Assembly (NCBI GenBank): GCA_965372405.1 | Contig: CBDVCE010000013.1 | Coordinates: 3,777-67,776 of the forward strand | Origin: an uncultured Sunxiuqinia sp. | GTDB taxonomy: Bacteria > Bacteroidota > Bacteroidia > Bacteroidales > Prolixibacteraceae | Reading direction: 5' to 3' | Length of the DNA: 64,000 nucleotides | Shown here: one piece after another, positions 29,026 to 50,051 of the stretch | How the letters are laid out: each line of letters opens with the position of its first letter | Position numbering within the stretch: position 1 is the stretch's first letter | The notes under the pieces: model-generated | Database searches by the model: none | What the model saw: the letters and a program-made list of their open reading frames with translations, nothing else | What the model was told of the DNA's origin: nothing | Position numbers and translations under genes: made by a program

Positions 29026-31680
29026 ATGAGAAAAATGACGCGCTTAATGTTAATGCTCATGCTCATATCTTGCTTAAATGTAAGAGCGGGGAGCGAGCAT
29101 AGCATTGATTCACTAAACTATGAGAAAGCGGAGTTTGTCAATTTACCTGATAAAATTGATAAAATCCCGTTCTCATCCCTTGAAAACCTTCTTCAGGGTA
29201 AGTTTGCTGGCTTGTATGTCCAAAAGTATTCTGGGACACCTGGTAGTCAACAAAAGTTTTCGATTCGAAATGTTGGGAATAGCGGTTTAGAAAGCACACC
29301 GCTTGTGATCTTAAATGGTATTACCATTTTTCCAGATGCTTCTGACATTACTGGAACAAACCCGTTATCGAGTATTGTTGTTGACGACATTAGTAGTATC
29401 GAACTCGTAAAAGATGCTGCAGCGTTAGCTATTTACGGTTCTAGAGGTGCTAATGGTGCATTAATAATTAATACAAAAAAGGCCTTGGCTAAAAGCCAGG
29501 TAAACATCAACCTTACTAACGGAGTTTCTGTTGGAGGAGATTCATACCGTGATGTTATAGGTGGCAATCTTGAATTGCAGCAACTAAAAAGGCTGTATGA
29601 TAATCGCAACCTGCTATACCCAAACAATCAGGTTGATTATCCACTATTTGTTTCTAATCCTAAAAATTCATTCTACCGATCGAATGATTGGCAAGATGAT
29701 TCACAAAATTTAGGAAAATACCTGAATTACAATTTTGGCATTTCTGGTACTGGAGTCTTCGGGTTTTATAATATCAGTTTAGGCTTCTTGAATCAGGATG
29801 GTCTTACTGATGATGCAAAACTTCAACGGTATAACCTGAGTATAAATTCAAGGTATAATGTAACAGAAAAATTTGGGTTCGACTTTTATATTACTGGATT
29901 ACAAATGCTAAGAGAAAGAGGCTCCAGCACTATGCTTCCTCCAGCTTATGCTCCTTTTACTTCAGACCCCGTTTTCCCAGAGAATGTTTTCATATCTGAT
30001 AACTCAGCAATAGATGAAAATGTAAACAACCATGTATTTACAAACGCAAAGGTTTTTTACAACTTCTCAGATAAACTGGAACTTACATCGATGATTGGGA
30101 TGGTTTATGAGAATTACAGACGTGATTTTTTCGTGCCATCTACCGCAAATAACGGAGTATTGGTAGCAGCCGCCATGTCTTCCCAAAATCAACGATTTAT
30201 CAGCAGGACTGAACTTTCTTATAAAGGAAATCTAGGCGATCGTGGATTAACTGCCAAGGCCGGTTTTGAGATAACACAAACTCAAAAAGAATATATCGGA
30301 GTAGTTGGTAAACGATACGGTTCAGCCTTTAGTGATTTTGTTAAAGTTGTACAAGGATATGGAAGGAGTCAACTTGAAGGAGGAACATCCTACAGTAAAA
30401 TCAGTTTGATTTCGGGATATGCAACATTTGATTATGAACTAACAAAAAACATTGACGTAACAGGTACGCTTAGGCTTGATGGTTCTTCTCAGTTTACTTC
30501 TGAAAACCAGTTTAAGCTATTCCCCGGTTTGGGAATTGATTGGCAGCTTGTTGAAAATAAAGACGGACTCATTAAAAATGCAAATTTGAAAATGGGTGGT
30601 GCTGTTACCGGACTTCAATCAGAAATTGGATCTCTATATGGTGGTAGCATGGAATCGATTGGCAGCTACTTATCCGTACAAGCACCTACAACTGTTTCTG
30701 CAGCGAATAACGATTTAAGCTTTCCAGTTAGCAAACAGTTTGATATTAGTTTAAATGTTGATTTAAACAATGGTTTGTGGTTTGGAATTGAAGCCTATTC
30801 AAAAAATATCTCCGATTATATTATAAATGTGCCTGCGCAACAATTTACAGGTCGTCTTTTTGATGTAGTTAATGGCTTAGATTTTTCACTAACCGGGCTG
30901 GAATTCACACTTGGATTAGACAAGAAAATTGGAAATGTCGATTGGAGTTCCAGACTTGTTGTATCATCAGTTGCAAGTGAGATTAAAGAGATTGCAGATA
31001 ACCAAACTGGTCTTCAAAAAGGTGAATCATTATCTGCAATTTACGCTTATAAATCGAGTGGAAAATTAACAATAGCACCTGTTAATTCGAAAACAGGTAG
31101 AGCTCTTAACTTTGAGGGAACTCCTTTTCAAGTAGGATTACCAGCAATTGTTGATGCTAACAATGACCAATTTATAAATGCTCTGGACAAAGAAGTTATT
31201 GCTGACTCACAACCAAAGATTTTTGGAGGATGGAATAACCAATTTTCATACAAGAACTTTTATATTGATGCTCAAGTGAATTTCATGAGTGGAGCTGAAA
31301 TTGCAGTTGAATCGAGACTCGAACGATATGCAAACAATTCATATCTACATGCTTTATATCCTGATAATGGAAAAACTACTCCATACTATTTCTTACAAAA
31401 GAATGAATTAGGAGTTGAAATTCAAGGTATTTCTTCAATTGAAAAGATTTCATACGTTAGACTAAACAGCCTTACCGTTGGATATTCGTTTAAACCGAAG
31501 GATTTCTTTAAAGCGAAAGATCTAAACGTATATGCCTCTGCTACCAACTTGCTTACCCTCTCTGGTTACGATGGACTTAATCCAGAGGAAAACAGCAATG
31601 GAATTTCACACTTTAATCTAAATTCTACAGGTACACCATTATTTAGAACAGTGGTTCTGGGAGTTAAAGTCAAATTTTAA
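29026..31680 (+). CDS. SusC/RagA TonB-dependent transporter 1 (short; no N-terminal carboxypeptidase-regulatory-like domain)
   Basis: LLQGKFAGL plug start, KDAAALAIYGSRGANG SusC signature, C-terminal F; 884 aa. Confidence 0.92.
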   Translation: MRKMTRLMLMLMLISCLNVRAGSEHSIDSLNYEKAEFVNLPDKIDKIPFSSLENLLQGKFAGLYVQKYSGTPGSQQKFSIRNVGNSGLESTPLVILNGITIFPDASDITGTNPLSSIVVDDISSIELVKDAAALAIYGSRGANGALIINTKKALAKSQVNINLTNGVSVGGDSYRDVIGGNLELQQLKRLYDNRNLLYPNNQVDYPLFVSNPKNSFYRSNDWQDDSQNLGKYLNYNFGISGTGVFGFYNISLGFLNQDGLTDDAKLQRYNLSINSRYNVTEKFGFDFYITGLQMLRERGSSTMLPPAYAPFTSDPVFPENVFISDNSAIDENVNNHVFTNAKVFYNFSDKLELTSMIGMVYENYRRDFFVPSTANNGVLVAAAMSSQNQRFISRTELSYKGNLGDRGLTAKAGFEITQTQKEYIGVVGKRYGSAFSDFVKVVQGYGRSQLEGGTSYSKISLISGYATFDYELTKNIDVTGTLRLDGSSQFTSENQFKLFPGLGIDWQLVENKDGLIKNANLKMGGAVTGLQSEIGSLYGGSMESIGSYLSVQAPTTVSAANNDLSFPVSKQFDISLNVDLNNGLWFGIEAYSKNISDYIINVPAQQFTGRLFDVVNGLDFSLTGLEFTLGLDKKIGNVDWSSRLVVSSVASEIKEIADNQTGLQKGESLSAIYAYKSSGKLTIAPVNSKTGRALNFEGTPFQVGLPAIVDANNDQFINALDKEVIADSQPKIFGGWNNQFSYKNFYIDAQVNFMSGAEIAVESRLERYANNSYLHALYPDNGKTTPYYFLQKNELGVEIQGISSIEKISYVRLNSLTVGYSFKPKDFFKAKDLNVYASATNLLTLSGYDGLNPEENSNGISHFNLNSTGTPLFRTVVLGVKVKF

Positions 31681-31694
31681 ACTCATACCGAAAT

Positions 31695-48127: not shown

Positions 48128-48194
48128 AAGTTATTGTAAAACATTAGTATCCCTAAAATGAATTTGATCAAATAGCTAAAAACAAAGGTTCAAG

Positions 48195-50051
48195 TTATTT
48201 TTCAAGTTCAGTCAATTCTTTTTGAAATTGCTGTGGAGTTTTCCCTATGAACTTTTTAAAAGCCCTGAAAAATGTTGATTCTGAATAAAAACCACATTGA
48301 TAAGCAATTGCACTCTTCTTAATATGCTTTTTATTGTTTTCTTTTGATATTGCGATATACTCATTTACCCTGAATTCGTTAATAAAATCATTGAAATTCA
48401 ATTCATAATATTCTTTCAGGATTTTGGAGATCTGATAATGCGGGATATCCGTTTTTTCAGCTAATAGCTTAAGGTTAAATTTTGGATCAAGAAATAGTTT
48501 TTCAGCAAGTATAAATTCCTTTATTAATAATGCTTTCTTTTCCAGTTCTGCTGGATCAATCCAATCTGCTAATGATTCTTTCGTTGGAATTTGTTCCTTC
48601 AATTCTTTAAATTTTTTATCTGAAAGAAGGTGAAAATTCTTTATTAAAAAATATAGGGAGATAAGAACTACAATTAAAAGAAGTACTTTAGCAGATACGG
48701 TATGGATGAAGATAGGCTTAATTTCCATTTTCAAGTTAATCTCCAGAGGAGCCTTATTCTCAATATTCCCCCATCTAACTAATATATCGTATTTCCCTGG
48801 TTTAAGATCAAACAATGAAAGATTGGAACTTCGTGAAAAATCGGATTCATAAGTTCTTGAAGGCCCTTTTATAATTATCTCCCCATTTGTTATATTTTCC
48901 GGTATCTGATTATTTAAATTAAAAGAAAACTGAATATCCTTTGTAGTACTTGGAAATATTACAAGATCATTCATTAAAATATTATAATCAACTAGCTTAT
49001 GCTGACTGTTTGGGCCATTATCCATCGATTTCACAATAACGGAAAGAGCTGTACTGAAATTTGTAATTTCTTTAACCTCGGAGTATGCAGTGTAGCCTAT
49101 ATCTTTTGAAAATGCTTTAATACGAAAAAAGATTTTACTGCTTCCGTAAATATTATCAAGGATTAAACTCCGGTCAGTTGATCTTCTGGAACTTAAAAGC
49201 TGCTTAAACGTTCTATCTTTTGAAATTTCCACCAAATAATAATCATAAGTATAAACGCTTTCTGAAGTCTCCCATTCGAGTTGAAAGGATGATGGACTTA
49301 GTATTTCAAATTTTGTAATATGAGGAACAACAAATGCTCCAGATGGAATTATTATTTGATCACGAATTGGTAAAACATTCTTACCATTTAAATTGCTATT
49401 CGAATTGTCTTTTATTAAAGTATTTTCATCATTGTCGAAATTATAATAAGCAATAAGCCCCTTCTCTCTCCCCAAAAGTTTTTGGTTCTTAAACTGATTA
49501 ATTTCTTCAATAGATCTGGCAACATTCCAGATCCTAACTTCATCAATATGCCCATCAAAACCGATTTCTTCATTACGATCTTTAAATGCTCCAATATGGA
49601 GATTCAAAGGGCTATGTAACCAATCTATAGAACCAGAAATAAGTTTAATCTCCACTAACTCACCATTTTTGTAGATCTTGATTGATTCACCGTCATATGT
49701 GCTAGCAATGTGTACCCATTGATTTATATTAACATCAACTCCTGGATTATAATTCCATTCATCGCCACGCATCTCAGATGTCTTTAACATCAAGCGTACC
49801 TTATCACCTACAAAGGCCATTGCAAACCCAGACTCAATATGATAGTCATCAGTAATAAAACTGACTGGTGCTGACCAATTTTCCAAACTGTTTGGTTTAA
49901 TCCAACACTCTACAGTAATTTGGGAAGAAGGAGGCGTGAATTGTCGTGAATCAATCACAATATAATTCGATGACGAATTGTAACATTTGTTTTCAGCGTA
50001 AAGAGAAATCGACAACAAAATCAGAAGAAAGGAAACAAAACTTTTAGCCAT
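48195..50051 (-). CDS. Membrane-spanning AraC-family regulator with periplasmic LamG and Ig/FN3-like domains
   Basis: Signal peptide, LamG (QWVHIASTYDG...FDGHIDEVRIW), TM helix, AraC HTH (IAYQCGFYSESTFFRAFKKFIGKTP). Confidence 0.88.
   Translation of the reverse strand: MAKSFVSFLLILLSISLYAENKCYNSSSNYIVIDSRQFTPPSSQITVECWIKPNSLENWSAPVSFITDDYHIESGFAMAFVGDKVRLMLKTSEMRGDEWNYNPGVDVNINQWVHIASTYDGESIKIYKNGELVEIKLISGSIDWLHSPLNLHIGAFKDRNEEIGFDGHIDEVRIWNVARSIEEINQFKNQKLLGREKGLIAYYNFDNDENTLIKDNSNSNLNGKNVLPIRDQIIIPSGAFVVPHITKFEILSPSSFQLEWETSESVYTYDYYLVEISKDRTFKQLLSSRRSTDRSLILDNIYGSSKIFFRIKAFSKDIGYTAYSEVKEITNFSTALSVIVKSMDNGPNSQHKLVDYNILMNDLVIFPSTTKDIQFSFNLNNQIPENITNGEIIIKGPSRTYESDFSRSSNLSLFDLKPGKYDILVRWGNIENKAPLEINLKMEIKPIFIHTVSAKVLLLIVVLISLYFLIKNFHLLSDKKFKELKEQIPTKESLADWIDPAELEKKALLIKEFILAEKLFLDPKFNLKLLAEKTDIPHYQISKILKEYYELNFNDFINEFRVNEYIAISKENNKKHIKKSAIAYQCGFYSESTFFRAFKKFIGKTPQQFQKELTELEK

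Follow-up and report, generated by a model that had tools for sequence, protein, structure and literature searches.

The window analysed here, a 64,000-nt stretch of contig CBDVCE010000013.1 from an uncultured Sunxiuqinia sp., contains at positions 29026–50051 a locus that combines two SusC-SusD-FAS1 triplets, further surface proteins, two phosphodiesterase (PDE)-like proteins with LamG and type IX secretion system (T9SS) domains, and a LamG-AraC regulator with a transmembrane (TM) helix, as read from an open reading frame (ORF) listing and hidden Markov model (HMM) scans (Table 1). We propose that it is a capture-and-import system for glycoconjugates decorated with phosphoester or phosphonoester groups, similar in concept to the PusCD systems of Flavobacterium and to polysaccharide utilization loci (PULs); from its sequence and structural models, we hold this reading to be evenly poised between right and wrong. 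A narrower version, in which the groups harvested are aminophosphonates, is for this window only a tentative possibility. The locus was first singled out by the original prediction, in which every gene named has the assigned coordinates and a significant family match and the two tandem triplets are borne out; the gene for the 160-aa lipoprotein p160 was missing from its list.

Related loci and contigs are designated by L numbers and were viewed over up to 10 kb on each side. Three of them (L003, L012 and L013) belong to the clade of the window, L001/L011, L002/L009 and L005–L008 are from Cytophagales, and L010 is a fragment. In the three loci of the window's clade and in the Cytophagales loci, a core of nine genes (SusC1-SusD1-FAS1-SusC2-SusD2-FAS1-p282-PDE/LamG-1-p160) keeps the same order wherever a relative extends far enough to reveal it, with protein identities of 31–79 %. 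PDE-LamG-2 is present in all relatives reaching past this core except L008. The original prediction was to be given up if the PDE/LamG genes did not keep company with the tandem SusCD pairs, and this co-occurrence is conserved. The double-LamG lipoprotein, LamG2, is found in the window's clade and in two minimal loci with the order SusC-SusD-LamG2-PDE (L037 and L040), and is absent from the Cytophagales loci. Two proteins that had been counted as locus members did not hold up as such: TlpA is absent from the equivalent position in L003, L012, L013 and all Cytophagales loci, and the DUF2490 protein was not seen in the related loci, so that both are lineage-specific extras.

The locus type is rare within Bacteroidota. 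A search with the 282-aa lipoprotein p282 returned only 23 clusters at 90 % identity, and an exhaustive HMM search of 1.84 billion representatives gave four full-length clusters of this family (50 % identity) at E<1e-30. A profile scan of 185,579 species-representative genomes retrieved seven loci, all Cytophagales-like, from genomes or metagenome-assembled genomes (MAGs) of Agaribacillus aureus, Cyclobacteriaceae and Reichenbachiella and from one "Bacteroidia" MAG; the window's clade was absent from these genomes. This clade (53–83 % identity) is known from metagenome contigs only, and the only two DNA runs that share words with the window are both sediment metagenomes; no RNA run turned up for the window, L005 or Agaribacillus.

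The predicted enzyme of the locus is PDE-LamG-2. Its N-terminal ~280 residues belong to a compact (~290-aa), widespread family of the alkaline phosphatase superfamily, whose members stand by themselves, end in a T9SS tail or are fused to LamG. Metagenome contigs, mostly marine, supplied over 539 confirmed relatives. Residues D31, S67, D168, H172, D219, H220 and H227 are invariant in 46 aligned relatives; the counterpart of S67 in ENPP5 is the Thr nucleophile, and the Asp and His residues align with the metal ligands of that enzyme. The best Foldseek matches of the AlphaFold model (pLDDT 88.9) were ENPP3, ENPP1, ENPP7, ENPP5, ENPP6 and the Xanthomonas NPP, with E ~1e-12. PDE-LamG-2 thus shares with enzymes such as Xanthomonas NPP (2gsn), the glycerophosphodiesterase ENPP6 (5egh) and the alkaline sphingomyelinase ENPP7 (5tcd) the alkaline-phosphatase core fold, three Asp and three His as two-metal ligands, and a hydroxyl nucleophile at the equivalent position; from alignment and model, it is predicted to be an active two-metal NPP-type hydrolase. 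It differs from them in several respects: sequence identity is ~20 %, the catalytic domain is ~100 residues shorter (about 260–290 aa), the nucleophile is Ser instead of Thr, another residue stands for the Asn of the PNH motif, the final His lies only 7 residues past the DHG motif, and LamG, DUF4983 and a T9SS C-terminal domain are joined to the catalytic domain.

An assignment of the PDE domains to the S1 formylglycine sulfatases was rejected, as CxPxR is absent and the motif reads S-G-P-S-W, with an invariant Trp replacing the Arg. The His-rich, bimetal ligand set is also unlike the single Ca site of S1 sulfatases, which match the model at a similar TM-score at the level of the fold only.

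PDE-LamG-1 is 28 % identical to PDE-LamG-2 over the full length and is a member of the same fold. At the seven catalytic positions it has D P F R N H Y, as against D S D H D H H in PDE-LamG-2, and five of the seven are lost in all PDE-LamG-1 orthologues. Judged from these residues, PDE-LamG-1 is a conserved pseudo-enzyme. Such loss typically befalls enzymes that have become binding proteins, and we predict a role in ligand binding, as a surface receptor. Both proteins carry the type A C-terminal domain of T9SS cargo (PF18962, 31.3 bits for PDE-LamG-1 and 45.0 bits for PDE-LamG-2; TIGR04183, 23.9 bits against a cutoff of 23). The description of both as phosphatase-superfamily proteins with LamG and T9SS domains was therefore right as to fold and architecture, and only PDE-LamG-2 keeps the catalytic residues.

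One relative carries a further phosphatase. Between LamG2 and PDE-LamG-2, L012 encodes a 927-aa protein with purple-acid-phosphatase, LamG, PKD and T9SS domains, which is not homologous to the PDE and has the same LamG and T9SS architecture; in the same locus (15323–20001), the PDE-LamG-2 orthologue is frameshifted near residue 202. This may represent either a replacement in progress or an assembly error. The idea that the locus imports a phosphoester, put forward in the original prediction, is partly supported: it gains from the conserved PDE, from its NPP-type site and from this purple acid phosphatase, and is narrowed by the finding that only one of the two PDE proteins could be an enzyme.

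The two triplets are old paralogues, to judge by the identity of ~26 % that SusC, SusD and FAS1 show alike. SusC2 is a canonical member of its family (TIGR04056, 718 bits against a cutoff of 368), whereas SusC1 falls just short of it (336 bits; SusC signature 45.8 against 46.2) and, unlike SusC2 and most SusC proteins, is without the N-terminal CarboxypepD_reg domain, as are its orthologues in all related loci (L001–L013). Each SusCD pair is always followed directly by its own FAS1 lipoprotein. FAS1a and FAS1b belong to the fasciclin family (PF02469, 36.7 and 24.3 bits against a cutoff of 22), are 26 % identical and end in NHLFGF and GHIFGF, as had been pointed out for the window. The C-terminal FGF recurs in 12 of the 12 FAS1 sequences extracted from the window and L002–L008, is invariant in an alignment of nine, and could be a docking motif for the SusCD complex. 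The invariable order fits the suggestion that the FAS1 proteins are dedicated partners of the SusCD pairs, a partnership that is itself a prediction. Their nearest relatives (~30 % identity) are Flavobacterium lipoproteins encoded in SusC-SusD-FAS1-DUF5007 modules.

The lipoprotein p282 had been labelled DUF5007-like, which is correct as remote homology and not as a direct family match, since the window protein found no Pfam match even at E=10. Its Cytophagales orthologues score 15–19 bits against PF16398 (cutoff 25), and one orthologue is labelled DUF5007 by NCBI. With the p282 family profile, matches to Flavobacterium DUF5007 proteins reached 1e-10 to 1e-13 and were confined to the N-terminal ~170 residues, some of the E-values of our local profile searches (p282 family and regulator analysis) referring to tiny databases. 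The ~360-aa Flavobacterium lipoproteins matched in this way also match PF16398, one of them above the gathering score. By these comparisons, p282 is a shortened, divergent relative of DUF5007. Its model consists of tandem Ig-like beta-sandwiches (pLDDT 77.5), and the only PDB match below E 1e-3 was BT4661, a SusE-like surface glycan-binding protein; accordingly modeled, p282 is a predicted SusE-like surface binding protein. For p160 there was no match in Pfam, NCBIfam or PDB, and no relatives were detected outside these loci. FAS1a, FAS1b, p282, p160, LamG2 and both SusD proteins have a lipobox, with acidic residues just after the lipid-modified Cys. Such residues are the surface-export rule of Bacteroidota, and these sequences are thus consistent with surface-exposed lipoproteins.

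Genes beside the relatives point to a class of substrate. In L005, a gene for PbfA starts 29 bp past PDE-LamG-2 (NF049939, 677 bits against a cutoff of 525) and, after one gene on the opposite strand, is followed by phnA (TIGR02335, 446 against 408) and by a PhnY-like dehydrogenase gene truncated by the end of the locus (TIGR03250, 595 against 636). The Agaribacillus-type loci L001/L011 have the same gene order and Pfam families as this phosphonate stretch. A second association concerns homologues of the PDE. In L019, L082, L090 and L100, a catalytically intact PDE homologue occurs with a TIGR03364 FAD oxidoreductase (351–411 bits against 285), together with a TIGR03351 phosphonatase-like hydrolase in L019, L082 and L100 (227–234 against 219) or a genuine PhnX in L090 (TIGR01422, 337 against 220). 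A TonB-dependent transporter is encoded in L019, L082 and L100, giant LamG/T9SS proteins in L019 and L100, and the eight-TM protein DUF5690 in all four; L100 was a blind pick from an unexamined subgroup. DUF5690, for which the literature searched assigns no function, is likely an inner-membrane transporter. PbfD1 is a member of TIGR03364, and PbfD enzymes oxidise N-methyl-2-aminoethylphosphonate or 2-aminoethylphosphonate (AEP) to phosphonoacetaldehyde (PMC10590968). The gene set for hydrolytic aminophosphonate degradation, that is, PhnW, PbfA or PbfD with PhnX or with PhnY and PhnA, is therefore found beside the locus in L005 and beside PDE homologues in L019, L082, L090 and L100.

Because the neighbours are PbfA, PhnA and PhnY in one case and PbfD, PhnX or a PhnX-like hydrolase, DUF5690 and a TonB-dependent transporter in the other, we favour conjugates that bear aminophosphonates. 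Glycan-type binders are favoured because p282 matches BT4661, because FAS1-DUF5007 modules occur in the CAZyme (carbohydrate-active enzyme) PULs of Flavobacterium, and because a PDE homologue lies among GH29, GH2 and GH43 (glycoside hydrolase, GH) genes. The most likely substrate class would thus be a glycoconjugate with phosphoester or phosphonoester head groups, particularly of the AEP type; candidate carriers are phosphonoglycans and glycolipid or glycoprotein glycans with AEP, hydroxy-AEP or methyl-AEP. Of the substrates originally suggested (nucleotides, phospholipid head groups or phosphorylated glycans), the neighbours thus point away from nucleotides and simple lipid head groups and towards aminophosphonate conjugates.

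Several results weigh against this reading. No phosphonate-catabolic gene was found in the 64-kb window among ORFs of at least 100–125 aa, nor in the parts of L003, L012 and L013 in view. Among the 80 best metagenome loci of the PDE family, phosphonate genes were present in only two (L082 and L090), and no neighbour recurred in more than six. A cytoplasmic PF01266 amine oxidoreductase gene, whose position in itself speaks for a phosphonate link, lies directly after p160 in L002, L007 and L008 by family search, with an ORF at the same position in L009; the proteins from the first three are ~70 % identical to each other. The enzyme of these four loci is of a subfamily other than TIGR03364, and its weak matches to TIGR03329 and TIGR03364 (E 1e-8 to 1e-11) leave an identity as PbfC or PbfD unconfirmed. 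Neither an inner-membrane transporter nor a periplasmic enzyme is encoded in the conserved core. Furthermore, substrate specificity in the alkaline phosphatase superfamily is not readable from sequence, and nucleotides and lipid head groups are common substrates of NPP-type enzymes. The phosphonate link is real and, because only two of the 80 loci carry phosphonate genes, not universal.

The closest precedent for a phosphorus-directed SusCD system is that of the PUS loci, with PusCD, of Flavobacterium johnsoniae and plant-associated Flavobacterium, for which induction by inorganic phosphate (Pi) starvation has been demonstrated (Lidbury et al., 2020; PMC8115612). As in the locus described here, SusC/SusD-like pairs are associated there with phosphodiesterases, phosphomonoesterases and sometimes phosphonate-degrading enzymes, not with CAZymes, and import of organic phosphorus was proposed (PMC8115612). 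The locus could in the same manner be a generic Pi-starvation scavenging system of the Pho regulon, which would cut common phosphodiesters (nucleic acids, nucleotides or phospholipid head groups) at the surface and import the products purely as a phosphorus source, an explanation that we consider unlikely. In its favour are the pairing of SusCD with phosphoesterases, namely PDE-LamG-2 with its intact NPP-type site and the additional purple acid phosphatase fusion of L012. Against it, nucleotides or small head groups would hardly call for five lectin-like or Ig-like binders plus a pseudo-enzyme, glycan PULs contain related FAS1-DUF5007 modules, and the enzymes encoded by the neighbours are specific for aminophosphonates. 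The locus also differs from PUS loci in its enzymes, which are T9SS cargo of NPP type with LamG, whereas those of PUS loci are periplasmic and belong to families pf00149, pf16670 and the PhoA type (PMC8115612). The presence of two SusCD pairs with FAS1 partners, of a DUF5007-like protein, of a pseudo-enzyme and of a LamG-AraC sensor also sets it apart. What is new with respect to PUS loci is therefore the enzyme family and its T9SS location, the tandem SusCD-FAS1 arrangement, the pseudo-enzyme, the DUF5007-like protein and LamG-AraC, while the concept is PusCD/PUL-like.

Regulation also bears on this alternative. The convergent gene at the end of the locus, which the original prediction had taken for the locus's own sensor, is present and is kept in L003, L012 and L013. 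Its product is predicted to have a signal or anchor (residues 1–19), ~425 periplasmic residues with LamG and Ig-like domains, one TM helix (~447–475) and a cytoplasmic AraC helix-turn-helix (HTH) domain (530–611). This is a ligand-type LamG-AraC sensor and not a recognisable Pho regulator such as PhoBR. The LamG domains of the PDE proteins are paralogues of the one in the regulator (E 7e-7 for PDE-LamG-1), which suggests that the regulator senses a ligand related to that of the PDE proteins. Upstream of SusC1, four TTGACAY elements lie on the same strand within 330 bp (28631–28962; starts at 28631, 28840, 28916 and 28956), out of 16 in the whole window (P ~0.001 for random placement, uncorrected for the AT-rich composition of intergenic regions). 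Elements containing TGACA or TGTCA also precede SusC1 in L003, L012 and L013. The cluster could serve the AraC-type regulator as an operator or represent a Pho-like box; a search for Pho boxes gave only this cluster upstream of SusC1, and no Pho box could be assigned.

The locus also resembles canonical Sus-like PULs, such as the heparin PUL of B. thetaiotaomicron with BT4661 (PDB 4ak1), in that SusC and SusD are followed by surface lipoproteins, in its dedicated TM sensor/regulator, and in p282, a lipoprotein of tandem Ig-like domains by its model, which matches BT4661. Two pairs of adjacent susC-like and susD-like genes are present. In contrast to canonical PULs, the core lacks glycoside hydrolases, lyases and carbohydrate esterases, and the phosphoesterase is its sole catalytic domain. 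Beyond the regulator gene, a block on the minus strand (50352–63998) encodes GH2, GH29 with a GH43-like N-terminus, an S1 sulfatase, a GH43-like protein, GH95 and GH123, the last of these cut by the end of the window. Such a set is typical for fucosylated or sulfated Gal/GalNAc glycoconjugates. The claim that the locus is CAZyme-free is thus correct for GH and polysaccharide lyase (PL) genes inside its limits and depends on where the border is drawn, as the block begins 300 bp past the end of the locus.

This proximity allows for an ordinary carbon-source glycan PUL arranged over two strands, whose SusCD side would bind and import what the GH block degrades; the substrate would be a fucosylated or sulfated GalNAc/Gal glycoconjugate, from which PDE-LamG-2 would remove only a minor ester substituent. 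We regard this as improbable, to about the same degree as Pi scavenging. Flavobacterium modules lend it some weight. In L015 and L016, SusCD-FAS1-DUF5007 modules occur with GH35, GH20 plus LamG, and GH109, and in L017 such a module is convergent with GH2-GH95-GH116; in L018, a stand-alone PDE homologue lies among GH43, GH29 and GH2 genes. Because it is found in CAZyme-rich PULs in Flavobacterium, the SusCD-FAS1-DUF5007 module is not phosphorus-specific, which tempers the phosphoester import first proposed. These PULs (L015–L017) have the same module, with an FAS1 protein of ~210 aa that is ~30 % identical to those of the window, but differ in having a single module, a DUF5007 protein of ~360 aa and no PDE gene, and in being embedded among GH35, GH20, GH109, GH116, GH95 and GH2. 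The evidence from the relatives runs the other way. Family scans found no GH, PL or carbohydrate esterase (CE) gene in the conserved core of any related locus, in which the PDE pair are the only conserved enzymes. No GH gene was found near the regulator of L003, L012 or L013 in the 10-kb view, or flanking any Cytophagales locus. Next to the regulator gene there is a second LamG-AraC gene in L003 and another SusC in L013, and the regulator of L012 is truncated at the end of the locus. The GH block was therefore rejected as a conserved part of the locus: it is adjacent only in this window, and we set the block apart because of this lack of conservation and because a terminator-like hairpin (50257–50281, minus strand) separates GH2 from the regulator gene.

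A third explanation, to which we attach very little probability, is a non-nutritional apparatus for adhesion or surface remodelling, in which the SusCD-like proteins would serve as a platform for export or anchoring. FAS1 and LamG are domains classically associated with adhesion, adhesins are among the cargo of T9SS, and an SprB-like gene occurs near the locus in L001 and L005. Nevertheless, SusC/SusD are TonB-dependent importers in every characterised case, the locus contains a catalytically intact hydrolase and a ligand-type transcriptional sensor, and its relatives are physically linked to catabolic enzymes.

The working model of a capture-and-import system builds on gene content, order and conservation, on the catalytic residues present or absent, on predicted folds and on the neighbour genes of relatives, all of which were established directly; what it proposes concerns where the proteins are located, whether the enzyme is active and on which substrate, what each binder does and how the locus is regulated. 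T9SS would export PDE-LamG-2, a compact two-metal NPP-type enzyme with a Ser nucleophile, and its dead paralogue PDE-LamG-1 to the surface. There, PDE-LamG-1 together with LamG2, p282, p160 and both FAS1 proteins would hold the substrate, in which PDE-LamG-2 would cut a phosphoester or phosphonoester bond; in the aminophosphonate version, this would free AEP-type groups or AEP-bearing oligosaccharides from phosphonoglycans or phosphonolipids. The two different SusCD pairs, each with its FAS1 partner, would import two kinds of product. The periplasm-facing LamG domain of the membrane-spanning AraC regulator would sense a product and switch the locus on. Released phosphonate would be mineralised by enzymes of the PbfA, PbfD, PhnX or PhnYA type, whose genes adjoin the locus in some relatives and would presumably be found at another place in this genome.

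Phosphonates make up a large part of the organic phosphorus pool in the sea and in sediments, and AEP in organisms is mostly esterified to lipids and glycans. To our knowledge, published schemes of phosphonate catabolism start from the free molecule. A 2023 review of phosphonate degradation does not address the opening and uptake of conjugates (PMC10574752). The described aminophosphonate clusters (PhnWX, PhnWYA, PbfA and PbfB/C/D; Zangelmi et al., 2023; PMC10590968) are cytoplasmic and deal with free AEP-type molecules; they are similar to the systems described here in that genes for PbfA, PhnA, a PhnY-like enzyme, TIGR03364, TIGR03351 and PhnX adjoin relatives of the locus or of its PDE family. 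In our literature search, no published description of such clusters included outer-membrane TonB/SusCD importers or secreted esterases, no paper linked TonB/PUL or other outer-membrane systems to AEP conjugates, and none linked fasciclin or DUF5007 proteins to SusCD. Secreted PDEs and lectin-like receptors with TonB/SusCD transporters, found together with PbfA, PbfD, PhnX and PhnA, are thus candidates for the step that opens the conjugate. It is conceivable, though we would not presume it, that they represent an unrecognised outer-membrane route by which Bacteroidota harvest conjugated aminophosphonates, with the locus as its SusCD-elaborated form and the PDE as a new family of phosphonate-ester hydrolases. 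If true, phosphonate recycling in sediments and the ocean would gain the first step that it has so far been missing. As a PusCD-like system, the locus would also extend that concept beyond Flavobacterium. It further offers a likely catalyst/receptor pair, in the enzyme and its pseudo-enzyme, and places FAS1 and DUF5007 proteins for the first time in a functional context, as fixed SusCD partners. Agaribacillus aureus and Reichenbachiella are cultured hosts in which such systems could be studied.

Table 1. Features of the locus at 29026–50051 and of its upstream region (positions are those of the window).
Feature	Position	Strand	Evidence and remarks
Promoter/operator region 5′ of SusC1	28446–29025	+	Four same-strand TTGACAY elements; operator role putative
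SusC1, divergent SusC-like TonB-dependent transporter	29026–31680	+	Plug; TIGR04056, 336 bits
SusD1 lipoprotein	31695–33074	+	SusD_RagB, SusD-like_3; lipobox FTSC, then acidic stretch
FAS1a, fasciclin-domain surface lipoprotein, predicted SusC1D1 partner	33077–33691	+	PF02469, 36.7 bits
SusC2, canonical SusC/RagA transporter	33709–36726	+	TIGR04056, 718 bits; CarbopepD_reg_2 and Plug
SusD2 lipoprotein	36736–38253	+	HMM scan
FAS1b, fasciclin-domain lipoprotein, predicted SusC2D2 partner	38266–38877	+	PF02469, 24.3 bits
p282, divergent DUF5007-like lipoprotein (282 aa)	38907–39755	+	Remote homology; tandem Ig-like model
PDE-LamG-1, degenerate alkaline-phosphatase-superfamily domain, LamG and T9SS C-terminal domain	39770–41653	+	Domains; catalytic positions lost
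p160, lipoprotein (160 aa), conserved core member	41673–42155	+	Present in every locus
LamG2, double-LamG (concanavalin-like) lipoprotein, predicted lectin-like binder	42216–43928	+	HMM scan
Terminator-like hairpin (GAGGCTGCC ... GGCAGCCTC)	43968–44019	+	GC-rich, then T-run; read from sequence
TlpA-like thiol-disulfide oxidoreductase (DUF4369 and AhpC/TSA)	44077–45162	+	HMM scan; lineage-specific insertion
PDE-LamG-2, predicted NPP-type phosph(on)odiesterase, LamG, DUF4983 and T9SS C-terminal domain	45518–47392	+	HMM, alignment, model
DUF2490 protein	47465–48127	+	HMM scan; only in this genome's version of the locus
LamG-Ig-TM-AraC one-component sensor/regulator, convergent	48195–50051	-	LamG, HTH_18

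The ten genes from SusC1 to LamG2 are separated by gaps of 2–60 bp and followed by the hairpin 3′ of LamG2, and they therefore probably form a single operon. The gaps are 148 bp from LamG2 to TlpA and 355 bp from TlpA to PDE-LamG-2, the latter gene being probably transcribed apart in this genome. Within the second of these gaps there is a small ORF (45217–45441) for a product of ~75 aa with a hydrophobic N-terminus.

By HMM scans, the genes 5′ of the locus appear unrelated to it and include an SSF/DUF4212 transporter and Fe-S and haem genes, among others; the views of the related loci begin only ~130–180 bp upstream of SusC1. Directly 5′ of the locus and on the same strand (25240–28445) are genes for a DUF4212 small subunit, an SSF sodium:solute symporter and a TPR protein. 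Further upstream, a haem cluster on the minus strand (7494–15564) encodes ferrochelatase, coproporphyrinogen III oxidase, an amine-oxidase-type (protoporphyrinogen oxidase-like) protein, a HemN-like radical SAM protein, an MFS transporter and a TonB-dependent receptor. The region at 18134–21955 contains a set of Fe-S-related genes that is unusual for a Bacteroidota genome, coding for a protein with a dinitrogenase FeMo-cofactor-binding domain, an ARMT1-like damage-control phosphatase, two CbiA/MinD-type ATPases with 4Fe-4S ferredoxin inserts and an Mrp/NUBPL-type ATPase.

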